32,000 bases of DNA, from positions 1,920,001-1,952,000 of the forward strand of contig NC_007614.1 in NCBI RefSeq assembly GCF_000196355.1. The letters are read 5' to 3'. This document shows, piece after piece, positions 152 through 24,143 of the stretch. Each line of letters opens with the position of its first letter. The first letter of the stretch is position 1. This DNA is from Nitrosospira multiformis ATCC 25196 (GTDB taxonomy: Bacteria > Pseudomonadota > Gammaproteobacteria > Burkholderiales > Nitrosomonadaceae). Under the pieces are notes generated by a model. That model was not told the DNA's origin and did not search any database. It saw only the letters and a list, made by a program, of their open reading frames with translations. Position numbers and translations under genes: made by a program.

Positions 152-1846
152 TCAGCTTACATAAAAATTCCGCATCATGCCCAGATCTTCATGCTCCAGA
201 TTGTGGCAGTGATAGAGAAACAGGCCGGTGTAATCCTCGAACGGTTTGATCACATCAATTTCCTCGTTCGGCATGACCAACACAGTATCTTTCCAGCCGC
301 TGTTAATGAAACCTTCGCGGACACTGGCATAGCTATCCGTGTCTGCGCCCTTTAATCTACGTGAAATGATCCGGAACTGTTGACCGTGCATATGGATGGG
401 ATGCGGCAACATCATCATGCCCATGCCGCCCATTCCCCCTCTCATTCCACGACCCCCTCCTCCCATGCCGCCCATTCCATCCCGCCCACCCATCATCGAC
501 CCATGCTCGTTGGTTATACGGACCTTTCGGATGGTATTGAGCGGGATGCGTTCGATATCCATTGCTTCATGCATTTCGAAAGACGCGCCGTTTAAGAGGG
601 GCGACATATGCTCCATGGAGGCGGCGATTGGTACAGGCTGATCCGGATTTGCAATATCGCTTTCTGGCAGATTGCGCATCCTGACCAGCCTCTCCGGCAG
701 CCGGGGAGACTCGCTGACTTTTTCAACAACGCTGAATTTCACAATCGGAAAGTCTTCACCTTGGGCCAGTCTTGCTGTTCCCATGCCCATGCCGCCCCTG
801 CCTCCCATTCTCCCGCGGCCCATGCCACCGTGCATTCCCATGCCGCCACCCATCCCCATTCCCATTCCCATCTGGGGAAAGTCGTATTCGAGGCTCTGCA
901 GCGTCAAATCCGTTCCAGGCTTGCGGCCGCTGAAGTCGACCCAAAGCTCGACCCGCTCTGCAGGTGCCAGTATGATATATGGAAAGGTTTCCGGCGCTTC
1001 CAGCAGGCCTCCGTCGGTGCCGATTGCTGTCAGGGGCATGCCGTCTTCCCATCCCAGCTTGTAAATCCTCGAATTCGAGCCGTTGAAAACGCGTATTCGA
1101 TAAGCGCGGCTTTTTACCGGAATAGTAGCGTTTACCTGCCCGTTAACCAGGATGGTATCTCCCAGGAAACCCGTCATCCGCTCATGCATCCCGAAAATGT
1201 ATTGCAACTGATTTCCCGCGGTGAAGCGACGGTCCTGAATGACGAGGGGAAGATCGTACTCGCCATCGGGCAGATTCAATTTTTGCTCCTGCTCATCCGT
1301 AATCGTGATCAATCCGGCCTGGCCGCGATAGACCTGCGGCCCTGTCATTTCATGCGGGTGTGCGTGATACCAGTTTGTGCCGGCCGGGTTCTTTACCTCG
1401 AACTCGTACACGTACCTTTCACCCGGCTCTATCGCATACATGGGATGTCCATCCATCTTCTGCGGCACGTGCATACCATGCCAATGCATGATCGAGGGTT
1501 CAGGCAATTTGTTGTAGTAAAAAATTCGCACTTTTTGCCCATGGGCAAGGTTCATGATTGGCCCCAGATAGCTTGTGCTCTTCAACAAGGCCGTTTCAGG
1601 CCCTCTCAATACCTTCCCATCGTATTTGAAAACGCTCGTACGGGGACCTGGCAGGATTTGAATCTCCGCTATTTGCGCGATGAACTCAATTTCTACATCC
1701 GGCTTGAAGGCAGAGTTGGGTTTCGTATTCAATATACCCGCGCCCGCGCCATGCTGGCTCCATGCCCACCCTGGAAACATAGCCGAGGCTGCACCCGCCA
1801 AGGCATATTGCATGAATTGGCGTCGCTTATAATCTTGATTTTTCAT
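152..1846 (-). CDS. Tat-exported multicopper oxidase, CopA/PcoA/CueO-like copper-resistance type
   Basis: All four MCO copper motifs are readable in the translation: HWHGMH, WYHAHPH, HPIHMHG and HCHNLEHEDLGMM. A twin-arginine signal is present (KRRQFMQYALAGAASAMF). I moved the start from 1882 to the ATG at 1846 (MKNQDYKRRQF), which has GGAGA with a 5-nt spacer. Confidence 0.9.
   Translation of the reverse strand: MKNQDYKRRQFMQYALAGAASAMFPGWAWSQHGAGAGILNTKPNSAFKPDVEIEFIAQIAEIQILPGPRTSVFKYDGKVLRGPETALLKSTSYLGPIMNLAHGQKVRIFYYNKLPEPSIMHWHGMHVPQKMDGHPMYAIEPGERYVYEFEVKNPAGTNWYHAHPHEMTGPQVYRGQAGLITITDEQEQKLNLPDGEYDLPLVIQDRRFTAGNQLQYIFGMHERMTGFLGDTILVNGQVNATIPVKSRAYRIRVFNGSNSRIYKLGWEDGMPLTAIGTDGGLLEAPETFPYIILAPAERVELWVDFSGRKPGTDLTLQSLEYDFPQMGMGMGMGGGMGMHGGMGRGRMGGRGGMGMGTARLAQGEDFPIVKFSVVEKVSESPRLPERLVRMRNLPESDIANPDQPVPIAASMEHMSPLLNGASFEMHEAMDIERIPLNTIRKVRITNEHGSMMGGRDGMGGMGGGGRGMRGGMGGMGMMMLPHPIHMHGQQFRIISRRLKGADTDSYASVREGFINSGWKDTVLVMPNEEIDVIKPFEDYTGLFLYHCHNLEHEDLGMMRNFYVS
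410..502 (-). repeat. Met/Gly-rich low-complexity coding tract 2 of the multicopper oxidase (GSMMGGRDGMGGMGGGGRGMRGGMGGMGMMM)
   Basis: Runs of ATG/GGN codons, seen as cat/gcc/ccc on the plus strand. They create the spurious His/Pro-rich antisense ORFs 380..595 and 396..641. Confidence 0.8.
779..874 (-). repeat. Met/Gly-rich low-complexity coding tract 1 of the multicopper oxidase (MGMGMGMGGGMGMHGGMGRGRMGGRGGMGMG)
   Basis: Same codon-repeat structure as tract 2. Met-rich inserts are a known feature of copper-resistance MCOs. Confidence 0.8.
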
Positions 1847-1970
1847 GATTTTCTCCGTTTTTTTCCATGGGACTGGGGACACAAGATTAGTTCCGAGGTG
1901 ATGGCCCTATTCTTCCCGCAGGCAAAGAATAAAAAGACCTTTTTAAGTCGATATTCTGCGGCCGCCCCTG

Positions 1971-2483
1971 TTATTTTTGGTGCATATGGGAGTGGAAATG
2001 GCCTGGAACAGCATGACGCGCATGATCCCTTAGCTGGGCATCAAACCAGTGGTGAATGGCGTCAACCAATTGGGGCGATTCGGTGGAGTAGGCAATTTGC
2101 GCCCCATCAGGCAGTACGGAATACTCGATTTTGATTCGCCCTGATTTGGCTGATTTCAATTCAGCCAGGCCGGGCATGCCCTTGCCGTGAATGCGCTCGG
2201 GCTTTGAGAAATCGCCCCGTTTAAAATCTTCTGAAATCTCGTACAAATGGGCCCGTATCAGCTTGACTTGCTTCACATCCGATTTGTCCTTAACCACCAC
2301 TTGTTGCAAGCCGCCCTGATTTGTCTTGGAAAAAACATGCGTCGTTTTCTCCAAATCGAATGGCATCACATGAGTGCCGCGCTTTGCGACTTCATCAAGC
2401 CGCTTCTCACCCGCCTTTTCCATTGCCTGAGCAGGGGTTGCCGCCAATAGCGCAATTATCATTCTCATGATGGATAGCTTCAT
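1971..2483 (-). CDS. Secreted protein of unknown function with a His-rich C-terminal tail
   Basis: 170-aa ORF with signal peptide MKLSIMRMIIALLAATPAQA and AGGGGA 4 nt upstream of the ATG. The C-terminus reads DHARHAVPGHFHSHMHQK. It lies directly upstream of, and co-oriented with, the copper oxidase. I recognise no family motif. Confidence 0.6.
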   Translation of the reverse strand: MKLSIMRMIIALLAATPAQAMEKAGEKRLDEVAKRGTHVMPFDLEKTTHVFSKTNQGGLQQVVVKDKSDVKQVKLIRAHLYEISEDFKRGDFSKPERIHGKGMPGLAELKSAKSGRIKIEYSVLPDGAQIAYSTESPQLVDAIHHWFDAQLRDHARHAVPGHFHSHMHQK

Positions 2484-2672
2484 TTCATCCCCTAACCTGA
2501 TTCATGTCCATAAAACTCGGGAACCCTTAGCCTTTGTATAACGAAAACTTCATACTGCAGGGTTGGGTCACATATCCAACACCTTGGGACGACCGGGTTG
2601 GATGAAGGTGAGTGTCCTTAAAGTATAGAAGGCCATGCCTAAATCATCCCGGATTAACCTACTGTTTCATTT

Positions 2673-3503
2673 TCAGCTGCTGATTCCTGTTACAGCCGCT
2701 ATGGCTTTGATCCCCATGCCCGTCGCTACGACCGCGGCAAGAATGGCAAAGCCTTTTTGCAATCCCTGACCTGTGAAGCGGGCCGCGAATGTGCCCGCAG
2801 CCAGCATTGCCACCACCGTGCCTCCTGCAAAGGGCAATGCAATCCGCCAGTTCATACTCCCGGATAATGCCGCTGAAAATGTGCCAGCTGCGGATACCAG
2901 TGCAATGACCGCAAGGGAGGTGGACACGATGCTCCGCATATGAAGACGCGTGGCTTTTTGGAGCGCAGGCACGATGATGAAACCACCCCCGACTCCAAGC
3001 AGACCGGAGAGAAAGCCGGCTGCAACTCCCCATAAGGTCAGTGAGCGGGCGCAACGAGCATCCCATATCAGACGGCCGCTGAAATCGTCGAGCTGGCAAG
3101 GAGTGGCAGGCAAGGAAGCAGTTGCGGCTTTCTCAGAATGATTTCCCAAGCGTCTGAACATGCTGAGGGCGATATAGGCAAGCACCGCGGCAAACAGGAG
3201 GCTCAAGGCTGCGTCAGGTATCTGTCGGGCGATGTATATTCCTCCGGGCGAAGCCAGCGCCCCGGTGAACGCGATGAAACCGGCCGCCCGATACCTTACC
3301 CTTCCCTGTTTCAATGCACGCAGCGCGCCGATGGCGGCCGAGATGCTGATTGCAAACAATGCAATGGGTGCGGCCTCTGCCACTCCCAATTGCAAGCCGA
3401 AAACGAGCAGTGGAACGGCAATGATAGCGCCGCCCGCCCCGGTTAGCCCGAGTATTAGGCCAACCAGGGCGCCAAAAAGGGCGACAACTATTGAGACTGG
3501 CAC
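2673..3503 (-). CDS. TauE/SafE-family (DUF81) anion/sulfite exporter membrane protein
   Basis: 276-aa polytopic Gly/Ala-rich protein. The N-terminus VALFGALVGLILGLTGAGGAIIAVPLLVF and a second GLLGVGGGFIIVP repeat are typical of TauE/SafE. It starts with GTG 3 nt after the sqr stop codon. Confidence 0.8.
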   Translation of the reverse strand: MPVSIVVALFGALVGLILGLTGAGGAIIAVPLLVFGLQLGVAEAAPIALFAISISAAIGALRALKQGRVRYRAAGFIAFTGALASPGGIYIARQIPDAALSLLFAAVLAYIALSMFRRLGNHSEKAATASLPATPCQLDDFSGRLIWDARCARSLTLWGVAAGFLSGLLGVGGGFIIVPALQKATRLHMRSIVSTSLAVIALVSAAGTFSAALSGSMNWRIALPFAGGTVVAMLAAGTFAARFTGQGLQKGFAILAAVVATGMGIKAIAAVTGISS

Positions 3504-3506
3504 GGC

Positions 3507-4793
3507 TCAGATGGTACTGCCCGGACGGGCGAGCCACTCGCGCCCTTTCAGGAAACCATGCCAGTAAAACCACGGCAGGAACTTCGCCTTGAGCAGCCAG
3601 GCCAGGTAGCGCGGAACTGTCGGATCGAGCCGAAAAGTCGGGAGCAGCTTGCCGCCGAACCCGAACTCGGCAAGAATGACCTTCCCCTTTTCCACGGTAA
3701 GCGGACAGGAGCCGTACCCATCGTACAGTGTGGCCAACTCCCTTCCTTCCCTCGCTGCCAGCAGGTTTTCCGCAACTACAACGATCTGCTTTCTGACAGC
3801 AGCAGCGGTCTTCGCGTTAGGGGCGGAGCACACATCCCCAAGAGAGAAGATATTTGCATAGCGAGAGTGCCGCAGCGTCTTGTGATCAACCTCACACCAT
3901 CCCGTGGGATCTGCCAGGGAGCTTTTGCGCACGAAATCAGGGGCCATCTGGGGCGGCGAGATGTGCAGCATCTCGAAGGGCTTTGCCACCCGCTCGATGC
4001 TTCCATCGGGCTGACGGATATCAAACCAGGCAGTCCTGTTTGGCCCATCCACCTTGACGAGGTTGGAGTTGAATACGAGATTTGCGTTATAGCGCTTCAC
4101 GTACTCCATTAGTGGCGGAACGAAAGCCGCCACACCGAACAGCACAGGCGCGGCGCTGTTGAACTCGACGCTGATATTGTCGAGCACTCCTTCCCGCAAC
4201 CAGTGATCGCATGACAGGTACATTGCCTTTTGCGGGGCGCCCGCGCACTTGATCGGCATCGGCGGCTGGGTAAAAATAGCCCTGCCGCCCTTGAATTCCT
4301 TTACCAGAGACCAGGTATACGGCGCCAGACCGAATCTGTAATTGGATGTGACGCCGTTTTTCCCCAGCGTATCCTCCAACCCCTCGATCTGCTCCCACGC
4401 CAGGCGCAGGCCCGGGCACACCACCAGTTGCCTGTAGCCGACAGAACGGCCGCCCACCAGATGAACAAGATTGGAATCCGGATCAAAGCCATTCGCTGTA
4501 GCCTGGATCCAGGTAGCTCCGGGCGGAATGACGCTGTCCATCGGCTGCACCGTTTTTGCGATGTCGTACGCGCCTCCCCCCACGAGCGTCCAGGCTGGCT
4601 GATAGTAGTGCCGGTCACCGGGCTCGATGATTGCGATGCGCAGGGAAGGCTGACGTCGAAGCAGGCTCGCTGTAACCCCTATGCCTGCCGCGCCTCCTCC
4701 AATCACAACGACATCAAAGTCTCCGCTCCAGTTACAAGCGGCATCGATCGGGGGTGTGGATACTGCGTTGTTCCGAATACGCTCGTTCATCAC
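3507..4793 (-). CDS. sqr: Sulfide:quinone oxidoreductase (type II SQR-like FAD-dependent pyridine nucleotide-disulfide oxidoreductase)
   Basis: FAD fold DVVVIGGGAAGIG. Conserved Cys contexts are present: IKCAGAPQK and SLGDVCSAPNAKTAAAV. AGGAGG lies 5 nt before the GTG at 4793 and 8 nt before the ATG at 4790, so either start is possible. The genomic context is sulfide detoxification. Confidence 0.85.
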   Translation of the reverse strand: MMNERIRNNAVSTPPIDAACNWSGDFDVVVIGGGAAGIGVTASLLRRQPSLRIAIIEPGDRHYYQPAWTLVGGGAYDIAKTVQPMDSVIPPGATWIQATANGFDPDSNLVHLVGGRSVGYRQLVVCPGLRLAWEQIEGLEDTLGKNGVTSNYRFGLAPYTWSLVKEFKGGRAIFTQPPMPIKCAGAPQKAMYLSCDHWLREGVLDNISVEFNSAAPVLFGVAAFVPPLMEYVKRYNANLVFNSNLVKVDGPNRTAWFDIRQPDGSIERVAKPFEMLHISPPQMAPDFVRKSSLADPTGWCEVDHKTLRHSRYANIFSLGDVCSAPNAKTAAAVRKQIVVVAENLLAAREGRELATLYDGYGSCPLTVEKGKVILAEFGFGGKLLPTFRLDPTVPRYLAWLLKAKFLPWFYWHGFLKGREWLARPGSTI

Positions 4794-4882
4794 TTAATCC
4801 TCCTTCTTTCAATTGTTCCTGCTCCACCCGCGGCCCAGGGTAGGCCATGCATATTGTTTGCAATCGGGTACAGCGTGAATAA

Positions 4883-5224
4883 TCAGCTCTTGTGGGGGGT
4901 ATTACCCCCGCCTCCGCAATAAATGCTGTACAGGGTTTCCATAATCCTGACCACATCAGGATTCGCAAGGCTGTAAATGATGTACTTGCCCTTACGCTCG
5001 GTCGCGACGAGGCCTTCCTCGCGCAGTACGGTCAGCTGCTGGGAAAGGGTGGGCTGACGGATTCCCAGATCTTTTTCCAGTTCGCCAACGCTGCTGGGAC
5101 CATTGATCAGCTGGCACAGGATGAGAAGCCGGTCTTCATTCGCCAATATCTTGAGCATGGTGCAGGCGGCTAACGCGGCAGCGCGCATGCTGATCATGTC
5201 CGGGAAATCGTGTACTTTATTCAT
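4883..5224 (-). CDS. bigR: ArsR/SmtB-family winged-helix repressor, BigR/SqrR-like persulfide sensor
   Basis: wHTH region LANEDRLLILCQLINGPSSVGELEKDLGIRQPTLSQQLTVLREEGLV. One Cys precedes the HTH (AACTMLKIL) and one lies near the C-terminus (YSIYCGGGG), as in BigR/SqrR. The start is set at the ATG at 5224 (MNKVHD), which has GGAGAAAG upstream. It overlaps the stop of the preceding gene by 8 nt (ATGAATAA). Confidence 0.8.
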   Translation of the reverse strand: MNKVHDFPDMISMRAAALAACTMLKILANEDRLLILCQLINGPSSVGELEKDLGIRQPTLSQQLTVLREEGLVATERKGKYIIYSLANPDVVRIMETLYSIYCGGGGNTPHKS

Positions 5225-5723
5225 TACCGGTCTTTCTCCGGGCCCGCGAATCATCTGGACGGTCTACCGGTTGAGCATCTCCTGTTTGCACAGGCCCGGA
5301 TCGACGCCCCGCTCTGCCTTTCTCCAGCATTGCGAAAACACCCATCCCCAGCAACATGGCGCCTACAAAGACCATACCCTTGGCACTTCCGCTTCCGAGT
5401 AACACCAGGGCAGGACCAGGACAAATGCCAGCCATTCCCCAGCCAATGCCAAATGCAAGGCTGCCCAGGACAAGTCTCTTGTCGATCAACCGCGAAGCGG
5501 GAATTTGCATCTTTGCACCGAGATAGCTGCGATCGCGCCTCCGAGCAGCCGTAAATGCCAGCGAAGCAACTCCTGCCGCTCCTGCCATGACCAGTGCAAG
5601 AGAGGGATCCCATGCGCCGGCAACATCGAGGAACGCCAGAACCTTTGCAGGATTGGCCATCCCGCCAAGAATCAGTCCCAGGCCAAAGATCAGGCCGGAC
5701 AGCAACGCTATCAGATTGGTCAT
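5217..5723 (-). CDS. YeeE/YedE-family sulfur-compound transport protein, half-size (second of a pair)
   Basis: The translation from the ATG at 5723 reads MTNLIALLSGLIFGLGLILGGMANPAKVLAFLD and contains the GWGMAGICPGPALV motif. AAGGAAG lies upstream. Confidence 0.8.
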   Translation of the reverse strand: MTNLIALLSGLIFGLGLILGGMANPAKVLAFLDVAGAWDPSLALVMAGAAGVASLAFTAARRRDRSYLGAKMQIPASRLIDKRLVLGSLAFGIGWGMAGICPGPALVLLGSGSAKGMVFVGAMLLGMGVFAMLEKGRAGRRSGPVQTGDAQPVDRPDDSRARRKTGNE

Positions 5724-5736
5724 CCAGTTTCTTCCT

Positions 5737-6171
5737 TTATGATTGAAATACATGCCGAGTGAGGTAGACCGTGAGCATGCCTATGCTCATGAAAATGAGT
5801 GTTGCTACAACTGAGCGTGGCGATCCCCTCGATATCCCGCAGACTCCGTGACCGCTCGTGCAACCGGAACCATAGCGGGTGCCGATTCCGACAATCAGTC
5901 CCGCCGCTGCCAGCACGGCATAGCTGGCGTCAATCCGGATCAGGGGCAACTCCTGGAAAAACTGCCAGGCCAGGGGTGCGGCAACAAGGCCGGAAACAAA
6001 GGCCACACGCCACCCTAGGTCACCCTTGGCGCGAGTGAACATCCCTCCGACGATGCCGGAAATTCCGGCGATCCTTCCATTGAAAAGAACTAGCAGGGCA
6101 GCAGCGAGGCCGATCATCGCGCCGCCCACGAGTGCAGACCACGGGGTAAACTGATTCCAGTCAATGAACAT
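5737..6171 (-). CDS. YeeE/YedE-family sulfur-compound transport protein, half-size (first of a pair)
   Basis: The translation from the ATG at 6171 reads MFIDWNQFTPWSALVGG and carries the signature RYGSGCTSGHGVCG. GGAGGAAG lies 6 nt upstream. The 27 extra N-terminal codons in the ORF track are unlikely to be real. Confidence 0.8.
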   Translation of the reverse strand: MFIDWNQFTPWSALVGGAMIGLAAALLVLFNGRIAGISGIVGGMFTRAKGDLGWRVAFVSGLVAAPLAWQFFQELPLIRIDASYAVLAAAGLIVGIGTRYGSGCTSGHGVCGISRGSPRSVVATLIFMSIGMLTVYLTRHVFQS

Positions 6172-6240
6172 GGATACTTCCTCCCAGCGAGATTCGATGA
6201 CGTATAAAAGCGCAACATGACTCCATGCCGTTAATAGACT

Positions 6241-6297
6241 ATCTATTTTCAAATAGATTCAAAATATATATTATATTTATATATATAATATAATTAA
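6241..6297. promoter_or_regulatory. Divergent control region: a perfect 8-bp inverted repeat plus a long AT-only imperfect palindrome (candidate BigR-type operator)
   Basis: 6241-6258 reads ATCTATTT-TC-AAATAGAT. 6262-6297 is an uninterrupted A/T stretch in which ATATATTATAT is mirrored by ATATAATAT(AA). It lies between the divergent yeeE-like start (6171) and the dioxygenase start (6344). Confidence 0.5.
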
Positions 6298-6343
6298 GAG
6301 CTTTTTAAACCTGTTTGACTTGACCAACTTTAGGGAAATCGAG

Positions 6344-7204
6344 ATGAAACCGTACATTGAGGCATTCTTTGATCCGGCAACATGGACGATAAGCTATGTC
6401 GTTTATGACGAGCCTGGTGGCAGTTGCGCGATTATCGATCCCGTGCTGGATTACGACCCGAAATCAGGCAGGACACGAACGATATCAGCAGACAGGATAA
6501 TCGCCTTCGTCAACGAAAAGCGATTGAGGACAGAATGGATTCTGGAAACGCACGCACACGCCGACCATCTGACCTCTGCGAACTATCTCAAGAACAAGCT
6601 GGGCGGCAAAACTGCAATCGGGAAGGAAATTCCTGCGGTCCAAGAAACTTTCAAGAAGATTTTCAACTTGGGAACCGATTTCATACCCGACGGACGTCAT
6701 TTCGATCAGTTGCTCGCGGATGGCGAAACGTTCCGTATCGGGAAGGTGACGGCAACTGCAATATCAACGCCCGGTCACACTCCCGCAGACCTCTCCTATC
6801 AGATCGGTGAGGCGATCTTCGTGGGCGATACGCTTTTCATGCCCGATCTCGGGACTGCGCGTGCTGATTTCCCCGGCGGGGATGCCCGACGTCTATTCCG
6901 GTCGATACACAAGCTTCTGGCTTATCCAGCGGAAACACGGCTATTCCTTTGCCATGACTACGCTCCCGCAAGCCGCTCCACCCGGTGGGAGACAACGGTG
7001 GCTGAGCAGCGCGCTCATAACATTCATGTGCATGATGGTATCGATGAACACGAGTACGTAGCCATGCGGCAAGCGCGGGATGCTACGCTCGACATGCCCC
7101 ATCTCCTGCTACCATCGATTCAAGTAAACGTGCGAGCGGGGCAAATGCCGCCTCCCGAAGATAACGGGATCTCGTACCTGAAAATACCGCTGAATGTTAT
7201 CTGA
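6344..7204 (+). CDS. Persulfide dioxygenase (MBL-fold, ETHE1/Blh-like, type II PDO)
   Basis: Metallo-beta-lactamase motif ETHAHADH. The N-terminus MKPYIEAFFDPATWTISYVVYD is typical of GloB-like PDOs. It is divergent from the bigR-sqr operon. The start is set at the ATG at 6344 rather than the TTG at 6320. Confidence 0.85.
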   Translation: MKPYIEAFFDPATWTISYVVYDEPGGSCAIIDPVLDYDPKSGRTRTISADRIIAFVNEKRLRTEWILETHAHADHLTSANYLKNKLGGKTAIGKEIPAVQETFKKIFNLGTDFIPDGRHFDQLLADGETFRIGKVTATAISTPGHTPADLSYQIGEAIFVGDTLFMPDLGTARADFPGGDARRLFRSIHKLLAYPAETRLFLCHDYAPASRSTRWETTVAEQRAHNIHVHDGIDEHEYVAMRQARDATLDMPHLLLPSIQVNVRAGQMPPPEDNGISYLKIPLNVI

Positions 7205-12037: not shown

Positions 12038-13252
12038 GGCGCATTCAACCGGTCAGTGCAACGCTTCATTCAGTACTTGGGCGGGTGTTCTAAAATCCAA
12101 AGTTTTCCTCGGGCGAGAGTTTAGTTTTTCGGCGACCTCATTCAGTTGACACTGCGTGTATGTCGCCAAACTCGTTCCTTTTGGAAAGTATTGTCTTAGC
12201 AGGCCATTGGTATTCTCATTGGTTCCCCTTTGCCAGGGGCTGCTCGGATCGCAGAAATAGACGGCCATATTGGTGGCCATGGTAAAGCGCTTGTGTGCGG
12301 CAAGTTCCTGGCCTCTATCCCATGTCAGGCTCTTGCGCAGTTGCTCAGGAAGCATGCGCATCTGGGTTATCAAGGACTGAACAACACTTTCAGCGCGCTT
12401 GTCCTGCACTTTGCAAAGCACGGTGAATCTGGAGTATCTCTCGACCATCGTAGCAATGCCACTATTACTCGAGCCTATAAGCAGGTCTCCTTCCCAATGC
12501 CCAGGCAGGGCCCTGTCTTCCACCTGTGCAGGGCGTTCTCGAATAGAAATCGCATCGGTAATGTGTCCTCTGCCTGCAACCCGGTGGGACTTGGCGTGAC
12601 GAAACATTCTTTTGGTGCGCAAGTGCTTCTTCAGTTCCTGGCGTAGTACGCCACGAGTTTGAATGAACAGGGATTTGTAGATCGTCTCATGCGATACACA
12701 CATCGCTTTTCCGTCAGAAGAGTGTCGCTTGAGCCATCCGGTTATCTGTTCTGGCGACCAATCAGCCTCCAGCAGTCCTGTTACCACGCCTCTTAGCTCC
12801 TCATCCTGGGAAAGCAATGTAGGCTTGGGGCGTCGACTGCGCTTGAGAAAAGCTTTCTCGGCATGGCATGCCCGATATTTTTCAGGTCCGCCATTGCGGG
12901 CAATTTCTCTTGATGTCGTAGAGGCAGCCCGACCAAGTTCCTGGCTAATCCTGCGCAGGCTTTTGCAACTAGCCAATCCACGAGAAATCATTTCACGTTC
13001 CTCCAGCGACAGACAACCAGATCGACGAGATCGTTGCCTCGGCTTTATGCCTCCATGGTAGAGAAGATACGAATATACCGTCGCAGGCGGCTTTGCAATA
13101 TCTCTAGCAATTACACTCATAGCAACCCCTTGCTGCCATAACCGCCAAATACACGCTTTGCGTTCATCAGTCATGCCACCATATACGCTAGCCATTGCAC
13201 ACCTCTACAAATCAAGAATCAATAGGTGTTGCACTGACCGGTTGAATGCGCC
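12038..13252 (-). mobile_element. IS30-family insertion sequence, 1215 bp, intact
   Basis: Perfect 25-bp terminal inverted repeats: GGCGCATTCAACCGGTCAGTGCAAC at 12038-12062 and its exact reverse complement at 13228-13252. CC flanks both sides (12036-12037 and 13253-13254), a candidate 2-bp target duplication. Confidence 0.9.
12053..13195 (-). CDS. IS30-family DDE transposase
   Basis: 380-aa ORF with N-terminal HTH regions and the catalytic-region motifs HWEGDLLIGS, LTWDRGQELAAH and VYFCDPSSPWQRGTNENTNGLLRQYFPKG. The stop codon lies inside the left inverted repeat. Confidence 0.9.
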   Translation of the reverse strand: MASVYGGMTDERKACIWRLWQQGVAMSVIARDIAKPPATVYSYLLYHGGIKPRQRSRRSGCLSLEEREMISRGLASCKSLRRISQELGRAASTTSREIARNGGPEKYRACHAEKAFLKRSRRPKPTLLSQDEELRGVVTGLLEADWSPEQITGWLKRHSSDGKAMCVSHETIYKSLFIQTRGVLRQELKKHLRTKRMFRHAKSHRVAGRGHITDAISIRERPAQVEDRALPGHWEGDLLIGSSNSGIATMVERYSRFTVLCKVQDKRAESVVQSLITQMRMLPEQLRKSLTWDRGQELAAHKRFTMATNMAVYFCDPSSPWQRGTNENTNGLLRQYFPKGTSLATYTQCQLNEVAEKLNSRPRKTLDFRTPAQVLNEALH

Positions 13253-13716
13253 CCGGTCTAAAGTGGAAAATTCCGGCTCCGTAGGCCTGTCGGGCAAGGC
13301 GTTTTCCCTTGCCCGGCGGGCGAATTCAGCGGGCGTTGCCCACTGCAATGCAGAGTGGGGACGCATCTCATTATAGTACTGCCGCCACTCATCAATCTTG
13401 CGCCTGGCATCCTCTAAAGACAAGAACCAGTGGGCGTTGAGACACTCCTGCCGGAACCGTCCGTTGAAGCTTTCCACCCTGGCGTTGTCGGTGGGCTTGC
13501 CTGGACGGCTGAAGTCAAGTTCGATGCCACGCTCATAGGCCCATTTGTCCATGACCCTGGAGATGAATTCACTGCCATTGTCGACTTTGATAATGCTGGG
13601 CAAGCCGCGTCTGGTCGCAATGTGGTTGAGCGTCTTCACGACATCCTCTCCTTTCAGGCTCTGGCCCACCTCGATGGCTAGGCTCTCCCGCGTATAGTTG
13701 TCCACCACGGTCAGAG
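13253..13716 (-). pseudogene. IS3-family transposase orfB fragment (integrase core only), belonging to copy A
   Basis: The translation reads ...LTVVDNYTRESLAIEVGQSL...KVDNGSEFIS...DFSRPGKPTDNARVESFNGRFRQECLN...YNEMRPHSAL, which covers the DDE/RNaseH-fold core. orfA and the N-terminal part of orfB are missing. The last 15 aa of the ORF-track entry 13205..13708 are read-through into the IS30. Confidence 0.75.
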
Positions 13717-14826: not shown

Positions 14827-15433
14827 ACGCGGAAGCTGCAATAACACATCTAAAGCAGCTTCAGGAAATACGAGACCATAAAATCCGCAAACAGCGCGAA
14901 GAGCGGGAACGAAAGGAAGCCGCAGCAAAGACACCTTCCGTCACTCTTCCCGACTTACAAGCTAAGTTTATTGCTTTATTACAAGGCGAGGTGATCGGGG
15001 CACGGCGAGGTTATGCACTAGAGGAAATATTGCAATCCCTATCAAAACTGTACGCACTTGAAGTAACCGAACCATATCGAATAAACGGAGAGCAAATAGA
15101 CGGTGCTATCAAGTATGACGGCGAGCACTACATTATTGAAGCGAAGTGGCAAGATAAAGCCTCCTCTAATGAGGCTGTTTATCAATTTGCAGGAAAAATA
15201 GAAGGTAAGATGTACGGTCGCGGGCTTTTTATTTCGATTCACGGCTTCAGTGAGAATGTCATAAACTCTCTTGTCACAGGCAAAGCCATAAAGACGGTCT
15301 TCGTCGATGGGGGGATTTAATATTGGTGCTAGAAGGGCTAATAAGCTTTTCGGAAATGATTGACAAGAAAATCAAAGCAGCTCAAACAAAGGGTTTAATT
15401 TACATTAACCCGATCACCGGAATGTCAAAATAA
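14826..15433 (+). pseudogene. PD-(D/E)xK restriction-endonuclease-like (Mrr-cat type) gene relic, 5'-truncated by the IS block and frameshifted
   Basis: The frame opens at the IS boundary with no start context: DAEAAITHLKQLQEIRDHKIRKQREERERKEAAAK... The nuclease core reads IDGAIKYDGEHYIIEAKW (D...E-x-K). The frame breaks in a G6 run (15309-15314). The -1 frame continues DLILVLEGLISFSEMIDKKIKAAQTKGLIYINPITGMSK and stops at 15433. Confidence 0.6.
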
Positions 15434-15661
15434 TAAAATACGTTCACCGGGCGCGCTAATGAGAGGAGTCGAACCTTCGATCTACTGAAATTAGGAATTA
15501 TCTGCTACCGGCGACAGCCAGAGGATGCCAAATTGACCAGCAGACCGAAAACAACGTCCCGTCTTTATAGTTCAATAGGGGCGTTTGGCTCAACAATTAT
15601 TCTACTACAGGGCTACTAAGACAGGAGGGGATTTAGAATTTTTCTGTAAGTCTTTGTTTTA

Positions 15662-15737
15662 TGGCTCCCCGACCAGGGCTCGAACCTGGGACCTGCGGAT
15701 TAACAGTCCGTCGCTCTACCGACTGAGCTATCGGGGA
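15662..15737 (-). tRNA. tRNA-Asn (anticodon GTT), 76 nt including an encoded CCA
   Basis: The reverse complement reads TCCCCGATAGCTCAGTCGGTAGAGCGACGGACTGTTAATCCGCAGGTCCCAGGTTCGAGCCCTGGTCGGGGAGCCA. It has a 7-bp acceptor stem, a GCTC/GAGC D stem, the anticodon loop CTGTTAA and a CCAGG/CCTGG T stem with a TTCGAGC loop. Confidence 0.95.
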
Positions 15738-15752
15738 ATTGGAGAGGTGCAT

Positions 15753-15781
15753 ATACTAATAGCTTAAGCCAAGCTGGTCAA
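15753..15781 (-). promoter_or_regulatory. Candidate sigma-70 promoter for tRNA-Asn
   Basis: On the minus strand: TTGACC (15781-15776), a 17-nt spacer, then TAGTAT (15758-15753). The -10 element ends 15 nt upstream of the mature tRNA 5' end. Confidence 0.4.
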
Positions 15782-15938
15782 TCCAGGGCAGTGAGTTATT
15801 GGGCTTGACAGGAGCCATTAAGGCTGATGGAACTGGAATGCAGTGGCCTTGTATCTCAACAAAAGAGGGAAATCGACTTGCAATTAGCGCGCCTCAGGAA
15901 GGTTATGCTAGCCCCCTAATACAGGCCACTTCTTTGCC

Positions 15939-15985
15939 CGTCCAATATTAAATTCCCGTAAAAGGAAAACGTTTAATATTGGACG
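15939..15985. repeat. Perfect 14-bp inverted repeat (long hairpin or palindromic binding site)
   Basis: CGTCCAATATTAAA (15939-15952), an 19-nt spacer, then TTTAATATTGGACG (15972-15985). It sits in non-coding DNA. Confidence 0.7.
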
Positions 15986-16003
15986 ATCCATTTAATGAAG
16001 TAT

Positions 16004-16033
16004 CAGTTTACGCGGTGGCCTGCGCGTAAACTG
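16004..16033 (-). terminator. 11-bp GC-containing hairpin downstream of the small lipoprotein ORF (possible terminator)
   Basis: CAGTTTACGCG (16004-16014), an 8-nt loop, then CGCGTAAACTG (16023-16033). It lies 24 nt after the ORF stop. The flanks are A/T-rich, but there is no clean U-tract on the minus strand. A T5 run follows on the plus strand. Confidence 0.35.
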
Positions 16034-16056
16034 CGCTGTGAATTTTTCTGAATTGA

Positions 16057-16194
16057 TCAATAATTTCCGTCAGAATTTTTCTCTGGCACGACAATAATTT
16101 TTTCCTTCTCTTTTTCTGCAGGACGCTCTACGGATATACAACCCGCGATTTGAGCGAGCAATAACGTCACCATAAACAGTTTTAGTATTTTCAT
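16057..16194 (-). CDS. Small lipoprotein, 45 aa (below the ORF-track size cut-off)
   Basis: Hand translation gives MKILKLFMVTLLLAQIAGCISVERPAEKEKEKIIVVPEKNSDGNY, then stop. It has a signal peptide with the lipobox IAG-C. AAGGA lies 8 nt upstream of the ATG at 16194, and a hairpin follows downstream. Confidence 0.5.
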   Translation of the reverse strand: MKILKLFMVTLLLAQIAGCISVERPAEKEKEKIIVVPEKNSDGNY

Positions 16195-16363
16195 AGGAAT
16201 GATCCTTTTGTAACTCGGCATGAAGTAAATGGGCCTAATTATTACAATATGCTAGAGCTGTAATCAAAACCGTTCGTTAGCACACATTATTGGCGAGCAA
16301 GTTTTCTTTGTATCCGAATGATGAGAGGTCAGCGGAAGAATATATCTACCGGGAAGATTTCTC

Positions 16364-16590
16364 TTGACATTTAGAATAATCCACAATTCTGCCCGAGTTC
16401 AGAGCCGAAAATTACCGTGCTGTTCGCAAGTTGCAGCAAAGCTTGACTTTATTTTAATTTATTGATAGTAAAGCCTTTTTAGAAATGTTCAAAAAATAGC
16501 CAGATAAGAAAAAGCTGTTACAGGAGGGCGACTTACTCTTCCTTTCATCAGCTTATCAACAAACTTATCCACAGCAATTGTGGAAAATAA
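16364..16590 (+). repeat. DnaA-box / AT-rich module, copy A
   Basis: Elements in order: TTGACA, TAATCCACA (16377-16385), an A/T-rich stretch, then the core CTTATCAACAAACTTATCCACAGCAATTGTGGAAAATAA. The core contains TTATCAACA (16553-16561), the perfect box TTATCCACA (16565-16573) and an opposed TTTTCCACA on the bottom strand (16579-16587). Confidence 0.7.
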
Positions 16591-16777
16591 AACGTCTGAT
16601 ATAACAGTGTCAGGAAATGCAAAAGGTGCTGCATACGAAGGATTCAGGCGAACACTTACGCCTCAGGAATCCTTGTCACTTTCCCTTGCTTCATCATCTA
16701 AGATTCCTGATCGAAAGACACTTCTTGAAGCCTCGTCAAGGGGTCAAACAGTATTAAACTTAAACGTCTGTCTGTTT

Positions 16778-16996
16778 CTACCGTACGGGCGTTTCATACT
16801 CCTCTTGCCGCAATGCCGCTTCCACGACTTCCTTGGCCTCCTCGATGTTCTTTACGTGTGACAGATCAATTCCCGGATTGGGATAGCTATGCCAGAAAGA
16901 AAACCCTGCGGTCGTGCTCCATAATAATCCCCTTACATGCTGTTCTACGAATACCTCCTGATGATGCTCGTCAACTATCTTCCATTCAATATCCAT
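16778..16996 (-). CDS. Hypothetical small acidic protein (72 aa)
   Basis: The ORF has GAGGAG 7 nt upstream of the ATG. I recognise no motif. The overlapping plus-strand ORF 16580..16861 has no RBS and starts inside the DnaA-box core. Confidence 0.5.
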   Translation of the reverse strand: MDIEWKIVDEHHQEVFVEQHVRGLLWSTTAGFSFWHSYPNPGIDLSHVKNIEEAKEVVEAALRQEEYETPVR

Positions 16997-17320
16997 CGTT
17001 AAGACTCCTCAGCGTCTGGAAATGTTAATATACCCCAATCAAACTCAGACTGTAGCAGTTATACTTTCATACTAATACCAATTGCTTCATTCTGCACTTG
17101 TTCTGAGTCAGTCAGCACTAATTAAGTGGATATCTGCAAGCGCTGGTTAGGCGGCAAAGCCAGAAATACTACGAGCTATGTTCGTCCCCCCAATCTCCCC
17201 CCTGTTTCATAATCCGTTGATCTATCGAGTAATGTTCAGCAGCATGCACTTCGGCAAGAAGGAGGCTTTTATGTCGATTTATATATCCTATCCTGCTCAA
17301 TCGTCAGCAAGGAAAAAACA

Positions 17321-18556
17321 ATGACTCAAGATGTAAGGAAAAATAGGTTACTGGTACTGGCAGTAGTCGTTATATCTATTCTTGTCAGTTCCGCCGCGCG
17401 AGCCGACGCAGTGACGCACTGGAACCGGGTGGCAGGGGATATTATCGTGGACTCGGGATTGGGCCCGCTCCCGGCAGATCGTGCTCTCGCAATCGTGCAG
17501 ACTGCGGTATATGAGGCAACAAACGCGATTACCCAGCAATATCCGGCCAGCGATCTCAAGCTGAAAGGTAAGCCGGAAGCCTCGGTTGAGGCCGCCATTG
17601 CAGCGGCAAATCGCGCTACGCTTACAGCCCTGGTACCGGTGCAACGGACAGCTATCGATACTGCCTATCGCCAAGCGCTTGCCGCCATCCCGGATGACAT
17701 CGCAAGAAGCGATGGCCTTGCGATTGGCGAAAAAGCCGCAGCGGGAATTCTGTCGCAGCGGGCACAAGACGGTGCCGATGCAGGAGAATCATACCGTCCG
17801 CACACCTCTCCCGGACTCTATGTGCCTACTGTAATACCGGAAGCGCCGCACTGGTTGCAAATCAGGCCTTGGCTTATGGATAACCCGGCCCAATTTCGTC
17901 CCGGCCCTCCTCCCCAACTGGAAAGCGAGCTATGGGCACGCGACTACAATGAAGTCAAGGCGCTGGGCGGGAAGCACAGCCAGCGCACCGCTGCTCAGAC
18001 CGAAATTGCCCGCTTTTGGGAAGAAGTAATGCCTCCGATCTACCATGGAGTAATACGCTCGGTTGCCGAAGCCCCCGGAAGGGAGATCACTCGGAATGCG
18101 CGTCTCTTTGCGGCGGCAACCCAGGCTTCCACCGACGCGCTTATAGCGGTATTTGACGCCAAGTATCATTACGGCTTCTGGCGCCCGGTCACTGCCATTC
18201 GCAATGGCGATGTTGATGGAAACAATGCGACAGAACGGGATCCTTCATGGCTTCCCTTTATCGACACCCCCATGCATCCTGAATACCCCTGCGCCCACTG
18301 CATCGTAGCAGGCGCGGTAGGAACAGTACTGAAAGCTGAGATTGGGGCAGATCCCATACCGCCCCTGGCTACTACCAGCCGGGCCGCGGGCGGCGTGATG
18401 CGCAGTTGGAAGAATATCGATGAGATCATCCAGGAAGTGGCCAATGCGCGCATATATGATGGAGTACACTACCGCAACTCCGGTGAGGTAGGCACCGCCA
18501 TGGGCAGACGAATTGCCGAGCTGGCAGTTATGAAATATTTCCGCACTGACCAGTAA
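17321..18556 (+). CDS. Secreted vanadium-haloperoxidase / PAP2 acid-phosphatase superfamily protein
   Basis: Signal peptide LLVLAVVVISILVSSAARADA. The three PAP2/VHPO motifs are readable: KYHYGFWRP (Kx6RP), HPEYPCAH (the PSGH position) and ARIYDGVHYRNS (the [S]Rx5Hx3D position). Confidence 0.8.
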   Translation: MTQDVRKNRLLVLAVVVISILVSSAARADAVTHWNRVAGDIIVDSGLGPLPADRALAIVQTAVYEATNAITQQYPASDLKLKGKPEASVEAAIAAANRATLTALVPVQRTAIDTAYRQALAAIPDDIARSDGLAIGEKAAAGILSQRAQDGADAGESYRPHTSPGLYVPTVIPEAPHWLQIRPWLMDNPAQFRPGPPPQLESELWARDYNEVKALGGKHSQRTAAQTEIARFWEEVMPPIYHGVIRSVAEAPGREITRNARLFAAATQASTDALIAVFDAKYHYGFWRPVTAIRNGDVDGNNATERDPSWLPFIDTPMHPEYPCAHCIVAGAVGTVLKAEIGADPIPPLATTSRAAGGVMRSWKNIDEIIQEVANARIYDGVHYRNSGEVGTAMGRRIAELAVMKYFRTDQ

Positions 18557-21387: not shown

Positions 21388-21750
21388 ATGACGAATTCTA
21401 ATTGTATCCTGCCACGACATGAAAATCACACCCATCCCCATGGCCCGGAATGCGGCCACACCGGTGTCGCGCACGATGACCATGTCTGCTATCTTCACGA
21501 TGGCCATCTGCATTACCCGCACGGCAACCATATCGATGAGCATGTCATAGACGTCAGTGAAATCAATCCGCAGAACTGTACTCCGGGACATGAATGCGAA
21601 GGTCACGCGCAAGGTCATGTACATGGTCCCGAGTGCGGGCACGAAGCCGTGCCTCATGGAGACCATATGGACTATCTGGTCGGAGGCCATCTTCACCACC
21701 CCCATGATGACCATTGCGATGATCATGGTCCGGTGAAGACAGTGGGGTGA
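21388..21750 (+). CDS. Histidine/cysteine-rich small protein with an internal tandem duplication (putative metal-binding)
   Basis: 120 aa with 26 His and 7 Cys. AAGGA lies 8 nt upstream. The two 37-aa repeats are HPHGPECGHTGVAHDDHVCYLHDGHLHYPHGNHIDEH and HVHGPECGHEAVPHGDHMDYLVGGHLHHPHDDHCDDH, identical at 23 of 37 positions. The antisense 136-aa Met-rich ORF is the CAT/ATG mirror image. Confidence 0.65.
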   Translation: MTNSNCILPRHENHTHPHGPECGHTGVAHDDHVCYLHDGHLHYPHGNHIDEHVIDVSEINPQNCTPGHECEGHAQGHVHGPECGHEAVPHGDHMDYLVGGHLHHPHDDHCDDHGPVKTVG

Positions 21751-21848: not shown

Positions 21849-23834
21849 TCAGATTATGAGCAACGCTGGATGCAGCACTTCGATCTCGTGCAGAGGACGG
21901 CCTTGCTGGGGCGGCGAATAGGTGCCATAACTCGAAATCACCGAAGGGTCCAGATGACCGACGATCTGCTCCAGCTCGGAAAGCCGCAAGCCCTGGCGTA
22001 CAAGATAAGTAATGTAGCTATGCCGGATCGTCTCGGCGGTGATTTCCTGGGGGTCAGGCAATCCCGAATCGATTGCGGCGCAAACCAGGGCGGTTGCCAG
22101 ATCGACGCGTGTCTGCGAATCATCCGGATCCCATACCGGGCGGTTACCGGAATGCTGGAGCAAGGATTTGAGCGGATTGCTGAGGGGCACCGCCCTCGGA
22201 GTTCTTCCTTCGAGGTTGATGACATTGGCCCGCTCGTTGATCTGATTCGCCTTCAAGGACGCCGCTTCATTGATGTCGAGGCCGCTGAGCAGCAAACCGA
22301 TAAGCTGCTTCCCCTTCAGGTTGGCGGCATTGATCAGGGTCCGTAACTGATGGCTCGAAAGTTCCCGGTGCACCGGTTTTGGCAAGGCAAAGTTGGTTTT
22401 CTGCTCTAACGGTTCGGCTTTGGTCCCGAGCGCGGCGTGAGGATGATCAATAAGCTCGGTAGCAGGCGGGGTATATCTCCCCACACCGAATACTGCGATG
22501 GAAGGCGATTGTTCCTTCTTTTGGGTCAGATACTCAAAAACCCACACGCTGATCAATCCCAGAAGCAGGGAGCCGCCGAGCGCTATCAGGGCTTCACGAC
22601 TGTAGTTCGGTCTTACTGGCTCCCTTGATTCATATGCCCTGCTAATCACATCGACCTGTGGATATTTGTCCTTGCGGCCGGTTTTCACCTGTACCAGCCG
22701 TTCCTGCGTATCCCGATACAGCTTTTCCAGTCCTTCCAGATCGGTCTTCAACGCCTCGTGCTGGGTAAATTTTGTCGCGAAGGCCGATGCCCGCTGCCTG
22801 TGCTCGCCCAATTGCTCGCGAATATCCCTGACGGTCTGTCGTGCGGCCGCGTAATTCACTTCGGCTTCATTCAAAGCTACATTTTGACCCCGCAACCGCT
22901 TATTGTTGATAGCAGTCTCGAGTTCCTTGATTTGCTCAGGAAGAGACTTCAGGTCGGGCTGCAGGTTTAAGTACTCGCGGGTAAATTTTTTATCGAATTC
23001 TGCCAGTTTTTCACGTGAATCATGCAGACGCTTCTCGAGGTCGGCCAAGCTGATTTTCTCATCGTCGGGAACCACTGCCTTTCCCCGGGCAATTGCAGCT
23101 CTGATGGCATCCAGTTCCGCTTTCGCCTTGACCTCCGCCTCGGAAGCCTTGTTAAGCGACTCGTTCAGCCCCTTCAGCCGGGCGGATGGTTCATTCTCCT
23201 CGCGCTCTGTCGATAGAATGTTATTGTTTTCACGGAAGTTCTCCAGCGCCGTCCTCGCGGCAGCAACCTTGTCAGCCAACTCCTCCAGTTCACCCTCGAC
23301 AATACGCTCGGTATTGCTCTTCAAACGTTTTACTTCTTCACTTCGCGCTTCCAGGTATACGTCTATCCATGTATTGATGAGCAAAGGCAGAAAGCGGGGA
23401 TCCGAGCCTTCTGCCGCAACCTCGACGAGATTGGTTTCTGGAACAGGCTCGACGGTCAACAAAGTCTGAATATCGGATTCAGTCAACCGGTTTAAGGATT
23501 TACCGGCGGGAGAAGCCTTCAATTTCCTCAGGGTTTCAGCGGCAAGCTCCCGCCCCAGCAGGATTTGGCGCTGGATTGCCACGTGTTGAATATCGGCATC
23601 ATCGCTCTGCTGGTCGATGGGCGTCATGGCCGAAGTAAGCAATGTCGCGCTGCTGCGATAAATTGCCGGCTGGCTGTAAACGTAAGCGAGACTGATAGCG
23701 GCGCTTGTCAGAAATACAAGTCCAAAAATGTTGAACCTGCGAGATTGATACCAAGGGAATTCATTCTTATCGGCAATCCGTCCCATTTGGTGTGAATTGC
23801 CCCCGAGATGCAAGTTGACTCTGTTTTTCATCAT
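21849..23834 (-). CDS. Polysaccharide co-polymerase (Wzz/GNVR chain-length-determinant-like) membrane protein with a C-terminal tyrosine-recombinase-like domain
   Basis: Residue numbers refer to the 689-aa ORF. TM1 is aa 61-81. A long charged, coiled-coil-like region spans aa 82-442. The GNVR-type segment QVDVISRAYESREPVRPNYS is followed by TM2 (aa 443-463). The tail, aa ~517-668, shows integrase box I/II-like strings: LLLSGLDINEAASL and TIRHSYITYLVRQGLRLSELEQIVGH...SSYGTY. The start is probably the ATG at 23834 (MMKNRV), with AGGGGA upstream; the ORF-track start is 23918. Confidence 0.75.
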   Translation of the reverse strand: MMKNRVNLHLGGNSHQMGRIADKNEFPWYQSRRFNIFGLVFLTSAAISLAYVYSQPAIYRSSATLLTSAMTPIDQQSDDADIQHVAIQRQILLGRELAAETLRKLKASPAGKSLNRLTESDIQTLLTVEPVPETNLVEVAAEGSDPRFLPLLINTWIDVYLEARSEEVKRLKSNTERIVEGELEELADKVAAARTALENFRENNNILSTEREENEPSARLKGLNESLNKASEAEVKAKAELDAIRAAIARGKAVVPDDEKISLADLEKRLHDSREKLAEFDKKFTREYLNLQPDLKSLPEQIKELETAINNKRLRGQNVALNEAEVNYAAARQTVRDIREQLGEHRQRASAFATKFTQHEALKTDLEGLEKLYRDTQERLVQVKTGRKDKYPQVDVISRAYESREPVRPNYSREALIALGGSLLLGLISVWVFEYLTQKKEQSPSIAVFGVGRYTPPATELIDHPHAALGTKAEPLEQKTNFALPKPVHRELSSHQLRTLINAANLKGKQLIGLLLSGLDINEAASLKANQINERANVINLEGRTPRAVPLSNPLKSLLQHSGNRPVWDPDDSQTRVDLATALVCAAIDSGLPDPQEITAETIRHSYITYLVRQGLRLSELEQIVGHLDPSVISSYGTYSPPQQGRPLHEIEVLHPALLII

Positions 23835-24143
23835 GCCTGCTATTCCCCTGCGCCAGCCGCTGCCCTGCCATTTATCACCCACATTCCTCCGTGCAATTCT
23901 TCCACTGATTCGATACAAATGTCACGAGATAAATGCAGCCTCTGTACGGTGCCGCACAAACGGGAAAGGGTTCATCCTCGGACAATGGCCCATCCAAAAA
24001 AGCAGCGATATTCATATTATTGTAAAACCCTTGCCTTAACTTGACGGTTAGCAATCGCACGCATGATAGACACAGGATTTGTATCGGAACCGGAATGCAA
24101 ATCCGGTCAGAATCACCCTCTTAACCCTTTCAGGAAACGCAAA

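Follow-up and report, generated by a model that had tools for sequence, protein, structure and literature searches.

A polysaccharide co-polymerase-like protein of Nitrosospira multiformis with a degenerate tyrosine-recombinase domain at the place of the Wzc kinase

What is a tyrosine-recombinase domain doing at the cytoplasmic end of a membrane protein that otherwise resembles a component of polysaccharide export? This question is raised by a minus-strand gene in a 32,000-nucleotide stretch of Nitrosospira multiformis ATCC 25196 (contig NC_007614.1, positions 1,920,001 to 1,952,000; hereafter the window), in which an earlier note, made from the sequence alone, had seen a polysaccharide co-polymerase (PCP) scaffold joined to a degenerate recombinase domain. 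The open reading frame (ORF) covers 21849..23918 and encodes 689 aa if read from an upstream TTG, and every peptide string quoted in that note is found in its translation. Translation almost certainly begins at the ATG at 23834, for a protein of 661 aa: we chose this start because RefSeq product WP_104009704.1 (Nitrosospira multiformis), to which the 661-aa product is identical, and the N-termini of the homologues, which share its initial 'MKN', agree on this position. A putative ribosome-binding site (AGGGGA) lies ~12 nt upstream, and a copy of the gene that is 96% identical is present in strains Nl18 and Nl7. Residue numbers below are those of the 661-aa protein; adding 28 gives the numbering of the longer ORF.

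Sequence and structure searches agree on the nature of the C-terminal tail. The Pfam model Phage_integrase (PF00589) scores above its gathering cut-off of 27.1 bits both on the whole protein (31.8 bits) and on the last 209 residues alone (34.6 bits, E 2e-8), and the NCBIfam models for XerA, XerD, XerC and the integron integrase match at E 4e-10 to 3e-5, far under their equivalog cut-offs. A phmmer search of PDB sequences retrieved archaeal XerA (4a8e, E 1.3e-9) as well as the P2 integrase (P2 Int) and XerD. For the tail, an AlphaFold2 (AF2) model based on 39 diverse tails of the family reached a mean predicted local distance difference test (pLDDT) score of 92.7 and a predicted TM-score of 0.88; when it was compared with the PDB by Foldseek, tyrosine-recombinase catalytic domains filled the entire top 40, headed by XerA (5hxy, E 1e-6, TM 0.66) and including IntI4, P2, XerD, XerH, Tn1549, HP1, lambda and Cre, with the phi3T repressor SroF (9rgl) at rank 42. 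The recombinase fold spans residues 494-660 of the full-length AF2 model, and the core-binding (SAM-like) domain is absent: the linker ahead of the tail is disordered, and no Phage_int_SAM match was obtained with Pfam. The resemblance of the tail to integrases goes far beyond chance, and the degenerate recombinase domain that had been placed after the second transmembrane helix (TM2) is borne out by all of these searches.

Alignment to XerA and P2 Int assigned the catalytic positions to D520, T545, E601, R604, H627 and Y636, giving D-T-E-R-H-Y where active enzymes have R-K-H-R-H/W-Y. This concurs with the earlier assignment of Arg-I to Asp and His-II to Glu, with Arg-II, His-III and the Tyr retained, and supplies a Thr at the Lys position, which had been left unclear. 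Residues were then counted over 236 full-length relatives. The Arg-I position is occupied by Ser (96), Thr (81), Ala (27) or Asp (10), the Lys position by Ser, Ala or Thr, the His-II position by Glu (94), Ala (73) or Asp (34), and the His-III position by Tyr (82), Arg (79), His (23) or Pro (22); Arg-II is Arg in 229 relatives and the Tyr position is Tyr in 233. The retained set thus holds for the Nitrosospira protein, while for the family only its Arg-II and Tyr (97-99%) stand, the His-III being a lineage quirk at a variable position. Even these two disappear in the more distant Nitrosomonas and Porticoccaceae members, where Arg-II is His or Glu and the Tyr is Leu or Phe. The Xer framework is otherwise kept, with PREL (LP-x-EL), LLLSG, R547 in the beta-hairpin, RHSY-x-YLVRQG (RHSY-x-YL-x-x-G) and G626, together with a C-terminal I/V651 ... 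HPAL segment, which we take to resemble the 'HPRA' of Xer proteins and in which 77-91% of members keep the P656-A-L658 motif.

A basic charge is typical of canonical recombinase domains, and work on Cre, lambda Int and XerCD has established that DNA is not cleaved once Arg-I, Lys and both His residues are gone. The tails of this family are acidic, with a median isoelectric point (pI) of 5.1, a median net charge of -6 and a pI below 7 in 235 of the 236 members (99.6%). We judge the tail to be dead as a recombinase, because Arg-I, Lys, His-II and His-III are replaced and variable and no core-binding domain is present, and we consider DNA binding unlikely because of the acidic charge. An active membrane-anchored site-specific recombinase, flipping or excising DNA to switch polysaccharide genes, for example, would fit the above-threshold PF00589 match, the Arg-II, His-III and Tyr of the Nitrosospira protein and the NCBI name 'tyrosine-type recombinase/integrase' given to some members. 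We nonetheless hold it to be highly improbable: in this protein three catalytic positions (Arg-I, Lys, His-II) carry other residues, the four lost positions all vary within the family, the core-binding domain is missing from an acidic tail, and the locus is syntenic and stable across Nitrosospira strains. The surrounding genes are also syntenic in a 92%-identical metagenome contig. No meaningful inverted repeats flank the gene within 2 kb; the scan, which covered 4.4 kb, returned just two 15-nt, 87%-complementary pairs that do not flank the gene and are short repeats at chance level, and an invertible DNA segment was ruled out on this ground.

The remaining two-thirds of the protein form the PCP scaffold. 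The full-length AF2 model (mean pLDDT 85) displays a periplasmic region with an alpha/beta base and long helices at 148-203, 214-249, 257-283 and 293-385, arranged as helical hairpins. Foldseek with this model ranked Wzc first (E 4e-9), followed by KpsE and WzzE (probability 1.00), and the same search also returned XerA, from the tail. The best NCBIfam matches are TIGR03007, the chain-length determinant of the XrtA system (55.8 bits, E 2.3e-15, aa 36-440), and EpsF (TIGR03017, E 7e-11). Across 55 diverse relatives, Pfam Wzz (PF02706) matches 39 (best E 1.5e-7) and Phage_integrase matches 38. A proline motif, P-V-R-P-N-Y-S-R (P-x2-P-x-Y-x-R), immediately precedes TM2, and its P409, Y411 and R413 are invariant in both family alignments (A1 and A2). 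The N-terminal cytoplasmic segment is weakly conserved (mean pairwise identity 22%) apart from a PW-x-RSRRF motif adjoining the first transmembrane helix (TM1), of which W28 and R33 are invariant in the homologue alignment. The proposed membrane scaffold is therefore sustained by AF2 topology, by the Wzc, KpsE and WzzE matches and by the TIGR03007 and EpsF similarity, and the same topology and Wzc match bear out the placement of the tail where Wzc has its tyrosine kinase. The core anatomy, a PCP scaffold with a degenerate recombinase domain after TM2, is supported; indeed the anatomy is well supported, and the function inferential.

Compared with Wzc (PCP-2a of E. coli K-12 and K30; 7nhr, 9r64), its best structural match, the Nitrosospira protein has the same order of parts: an N-terminal cytoplasmic segment, TM1, a helical periplasmic domain, TM2 and a C-terminal globule. 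It differs in lacking the P-loop kinase, as had been noticed at first sight. Walker A (G-x4-GK[ST]) is absent from the protein and present in only 1 of the 236 relatives, and a Pfam scan of the protein gave no kinase or ParA-type match. The C-terminal tyrosine cluster is likewise missing, only Y636 and Y639 lying near the C-terminus (the latter Tyr, Leu or Phe across relatives), as is the jellyroll 'motif 2' from the AF2 secondary structure; an additional difference is the disordered linker of ~45 residues between TM2 and the tail. Among PCPs of the TIGR03007/EpsF/GumC/ExoP type, likeness lies in the NCBIfam match and in the XrtA-system genes that adjoin some relatives. TIGR03007 proteins, however, are not known to have a folded C-terminal cytoplasmic domain and are partnered by a separate kinase, and at 55.8 bits against a curated cut-off of 278.85 the Nitrosospira protein is not an equivalog. 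Xer recombinases (XerA 4a8e/5hxy, XerC/XerD, P2 integrase) have the same catalytic-domain fold as the tail and almost all of its sequence framework; the tail differs from them in being acidic and membrane-tethered, without a core-binding domain and, at the family level, without Arg-I, Lys, His-II and His-III. MrpR/YopR of SPbeta (PMC10516654) and SroF of phi3T likewise retain a tyrosine-recombinase fold for a purpose other than catalysis, although those are soluble two-domain DNA-binding phage repressors and the tail is a single acidic domain fused to a PCP, with no sign of binding to DNA.

One could also see in the fusion a product of misassembly or of a frameshift, or else the decay of a pseudogene in which a PCP gene has become joined to an integrase remnant. 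We give this next to no credence. Uninterrupted genes for proteins of 640-700 aa occur at 66 genome loci and 80 metagenome loci, the latter on contigs from soil, sediment and wetland. Isolate genomes of many genera have the intact architecture, and full-length homologues were found in Nitrosospira, Nitrosovibrio, Nitrosomonas, Methylobacter/Methylococcales/Crenothrix, Porticoccaceae, Aromatoleum, Thiobacillus and Burkholderiales. With the tail alone as query, phmmer returned 309 matches at E<=1e-10 among 1.84 billion cluster representatives (50% identity clusters), and the best 150 of the 309 are mostly 640-700 aa long with the match at the extreme C-terminus. A tail-only word-index search gave almost only fragments, and an alignment of distant loci was used instead. 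The fusion is thus real, widespread and old, and is not a frameshift or assembly artefact because it is full-length in hundreds of independent sequences, including hundreds of metagenome clusters.

In favour of an artefact or of decay are the few short tail-only proteins present in databases and an interrupted relative in Paraglaciecola aquimarina (L066, 10952-11728; 26% identical), in which one in-frame stop codon within the linker leaves a PCP part of 415 aa and, still in frame with it, an integrase-like tail of 174 aa; a natural split of the gene, pseudogene formation or a sequencing error could each account for this. Tail-only proteins were rejected as natural split genes, since both of those inspected lie on long-read contigs whose neighbouring genes are also frameshifted. 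On these contigs (L155 and L156; ENA ERZ250394xx/395xx), the family gene, a phosphatidylserine decarboxylase gene and others are split into overlapping pieces, which indicates frameshift errors, and such contigs would inflate the count of stand-alone integrase-like proteins.

Decay is further opposed by selection on the tail. Mean pairwise identity across the family is 45% for the tail and 45% for the periplasmic domain, and 27% with many gaps for the linker. Comparisons with distant orthologues were saturated for the ratio of non-synonymous to synonymous substitution rates (dN/dS), and close strains were used in their place: in six unsaturated comparisons between N. multiformis strains and metagenome-assembled genomes (90-96% identical, dS 0.17-0.54), the tail had a dN/dS of 0.13-0.19, against 0.06-0.09 in the periplasmic domain and 0.20-0.75 in the linker. 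Because the tail equals the periplasmic domain in identity, has a low dN/dS and conserves its C-terminal motif, these comparisons indicate that it is functional and under purifying selection.

What function might a dead recombinase serve at this position? In known PCPs the periplasmic domain oligomerises into a ring that surrounds the apparatus for polymerisation and export. On balance, and by a modest preponderance of the evidence, we favour an inner-membrane PCP of the Wzc/GumC/ExoP type, in which ring formation and control of the chain length or export of a polysaccharide would be expected, with indirect support from the polysaccharide genes beside some relatives. In it an exapted Xer domain would have taken the place of the kinase, as a cytoplasmic module for assembly, regulation or docking. 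The recombinase catalytic domain sits, after TM2 and a flexible linker of ~45 residues, where Wzc has its P-loop tyrosine autokinase, and it has lost its core-binding domain, four of six catalytic residues at the family level and its basic charge; it would have ceased to cut or bind DNA, and may have assumed the structural or regulatory role that the kinase ring plays in the Wzc oligomer. Neighbouring tails could plausibly contact each other cyclically through the conserved C-terminal segment I/V651 ... H-P-A-L, with this segment as candidate donor and the Tyr636/Arg604 pocket as candidate acceptor or regulatory site. We propose this pairing because Wzc, through its Tyr-rich tail, and tyrosine recombinases, through their C-terminal helix, both assemble by donation to the adjacent subunit. 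XerC and XerD interact through their C-termini, and for the cyclic assembly of recombinases we rely on the study of the XerA alpha-N 'molecular switch' (PMC3646895). In the Wzc octamer, about two-thirds of the interface is cytoplasmic, the C-terminal tail enters the active site of the neighbour, and phosphorylation dissolves the cytoplasmic ring (PMC8285477). That the tails of the present family form a ring we infer purely by analogy.

Several observations weigh against this reading. Both the TIGR03007 score and the EpsF match are far under their curated cut-offs, and neither Pfam Wzz nor Pfam GNVR (PF13807) matches the Nitrosospira protein at E<=1, so that the GNVR label attached to the segment before TM2 in the earlier note finds no support from its hidden Markov model. 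That 97-99% of members keep Arg-II and Tyr could signal residual chemistry and not a structural role, and the long disordered linker would let the tail reach partners other than neighbouring tails. ORF clustering of 68 and then 108 loci found no neighbour conserved across lineages, synteny being lineage-specific, and the tie to a particular polysaccharide in the Nitrosospira genome is weak because there is no such neighbour and the gene is monocistronic there.

The reach of the linker bears on a different possibility, a membrane-anchored regulator or tether of the nucleoid whose dead recombinase domain would keep sequence-specific DNA binding and which would relay a periplasmic PCP signal to transcription in the manner of ToxR or CadC. 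With its long flexible linker the tail could come into contact with DNA, R547, R604, R613 and R617 are conserved across the 236 relatives, and precedent exists in MrpR, a recombinase fold that acts without catalysis as the SPbeta repressor (PMC10516654), and in the phi3T repressor SroF among the fold matches of the tail. Set against these are the acidity of the tail in all but one member, the absence of the core-binding domain, from which much of the DNA affinity derives, and the lack of both a conserved neighbouring target locus and inverted repeats near the gene; we consider such a regulator improbable.

In a second possibility, a separate bacterial tyrosine kinase (BY-kinase) or another enzyme would dock on the tail or phosphorylate it, with Tyr636 as the acceptor in trans, and the PCP would be regulated by a kinase without having one of its own. 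The retention of this residue in 233 of 236 relatives, when the rest of the active site is gone, is consistent with such a role, as is the position of some relatives next to XrtA/PEP-CTERM loci, which normally encode a separate tyrosine kinase, TIGR03018. Wzc has been reported to phosphorylate the HK022 integrase, as cited in PMC2516531. No kinase gene, however, was seen adjoining any family member whose neighbours were inspected, there is no tyrosine cluster, and in distant members Tyr636 is replaced by Leu or Phe (Nitrosomonas and one Porticoccaceae member). Such a docking or phospho-acceptor role is, on this evidence, unlikely. Returning to the exapted Xer module on a PCP scaffold, a bolder form of that reading would make the family a third kind of PCP-2, in which the cytoplasmic ring that gates polymerisation and export would consist of Xer domains, in place of a nucleotide-driven tyrosine kinase, and would assemble through cyclic C-terminal donation, perhaps with a trans-phosphorylation switch at Tyr636; we put it forward tentatively, as possible though doubtful. 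If true, the reported phosphorylation of HK022 integrase by Wzc would have a counterpart here at the protein level.

A defence-system role was also considered and set aside, PADLOC having given only weak coiled-coil matches to LmuB and JetC.

Assembly of capsules and exopolysaccharides has PCP-2 proteins such as Wzc as its master regulators, and in current models their kinase ring and its phosphorylation cycle form the essential switch. A family with the same scaffold and a wholly different cytoplasmic module, apparently without nucleotide binding, would be a natural experiment on the need for the cytoplasmic ring, as well as an example of a DNA recombinase domain recruited into a membrane machine as a pseudo-enzyme. 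It occurs in Proteobacteria of soil and fresh water, among them type I methanotrophs and the principal ammonia oxidisers of soil, and it bears on biofilm and floc formation in nitrifiers. The earlier note could not place the architecture in any characterised system, and we likewise found no curated family that fits it and no literature on a PCP, Wzz or GumC protein combined with an integrase or tyrosine recombinase. Judging from database records, annotation pipelines have already met it, though without study: labels vary between 'GumC family protein', 'integrase', 'tyrosine-type recombinase/integrase' and 'uncharacterized protein involved in exopolysaccharide biosynthesis', and genes labelled 'integrase' could be miscounted as mobile-element markers.

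Table 1. The PCP-integrase gene and the segments of its product, with coordinates in the window
Feature	Coordinates	Strand	Basis
Whole gene, PCP-integrase fusion	21849..23834	-	661 codons + stop; ORF listing, RefSeq identity
N-terminal cytoplasmic segment, aa 1-27	23754..23834	-	pLDDT <50 for residues 1-26
Transmembrane helix 1, aa 28-54	23673..23753	-	AF2 helix, pLDDT 89-96; hydrophobic string FNIFGLVFLTSAAISLAYVY
Periplasmic PCP domain, aa 55-410	22605..23672	-	AF2, Foldseek, TIGR03007 similarity, Wzz in relatives
Transmembrane helix 2, aa 411-437	22524..22604	-	AF2 helix
Disordered cytoplasmic linker, aa 438-483, ~45 residues	22386..22523	-	pLDDT ~40 for residues 440-484
Cytoplasmic pseudo-recombinase domain, aa 484-661, 178 aa	21852..22385	-	PF00589, PDB sequence matches, AF2 and Foldseek

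In the window the gene is divergent from a LigB-type dioxygenase gene and convergent with a His-rich ORF, with a saccharopine-dehydrogenase-like gene next in line. Pfam scans of the window ORFs revealed no glycosyltransferase, Wza, Wzx/Wzy or kinase gene, so the description of the gene as solitary is accurate here; it does not extend to relatives elsewhere, which abut XrtA/PEP-CTERM exopolysaccharide or sugar-modifying genes. The comparison of neighbourhoods called for in that description gave no universal neighbour and several lineage-specific contexts that are sugar-related. The His-rich ORF (21388-21750, plus strand; 120 aa) has repeated H-x-x-HGPECGH and HLH-x-PH motifs and no Pfam match, and is possibly a metal-binding protein; it lies downstream of the PCP-integrase gene, ~40 nt to 3 kb away, in 30 Nitrosospira/Nitrosovibrio loci, a figure that, like the other neighbour counts below, is a lower bound because the greedy ORF caller also took antisense ORFs in high-GC contigs.

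In Methylococcales (L001 12001-14228; L155 5570-7782; L156 3954-6206), a TIGR04283 glycosyltransferase gene follows ~40 nt downstream on the same strand, and the order of family gene, TIGR04283, a fatty-acid-hydroxylase-family gene and TIGR04282 is conserved, possibly as an operon; NCBIfam names both TIGR models 'arsenosugar biosynthesis glycosyltransferase'. Soil betaproteobacterial contigs present further contexts, of which TIGR03097 (exosortase-A-associated O-glycosylation ligase; 551 bits, 5 loci) and TIGR03013 (XrtA/PEP-CTERM glycosyltransferase) with PrsK and PrsR (1 locus) were all called above curated cut-offs. On such contigs a protein of ~1,200 aa combining VanZ with a DSE-like/heparinase II/III-like part adjoins the family gene in at least 6 loci, and a GMC-oxidoreductase and long short-chain dehydrogenase/reductase (SDR) pair lies beside it in 7-8 loci. 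CysD and CysNC, genes for synthesis of 3'-phosphoadenosine 5'-phosphosulfate (PAPS), adjoin the family gene together with TauE in 3 loci, and a CysQ-like Inositol_P gene is present in L073. The VanZ-heparinase and PAPS contexts (L070 10162-18097; L073 2855-6355 and 11597-16146; L074 1-7969; L080 1354-5091) contain hints of a sulfated or epimerised polysaccharide locus. In Porticoccaceae, the family gene is preceded by a set of AMP-ligase, SDR and methyltransferase genes.

Three other parts of the window deserve mention. Adjacent rve-family transposase/integrase ORFs of 380 aa (HTH_38 and rve) and 167 aa (rve_3) occupy 12053-13708 on the minus strand and are followed at 15000-17000 by a stretch of low GC (0.41-0.44, against ~0.52 elsewhere), which suggests an insertion-sequence or foreign-DNA patch. 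The cluster at 152-7204 encodes a multicopper oxidase, a TauE/SafE-family exporter, a pyridine-nucleotide-disulphide oxidoreductase, DUF6691 and a metallo-beta-lactamase-fold protein; a module related to sulfur or copper may lie here, with no apparent connection to the PCP-integrase gene. Finally, a 411-aa PAP2/vanadium-chloroperoxidase-like protein, whose Pfam matches are weak and below the gathering score, is encoded at 17321-18556 on the plus strand and is found at the same position in a close relative (L002).

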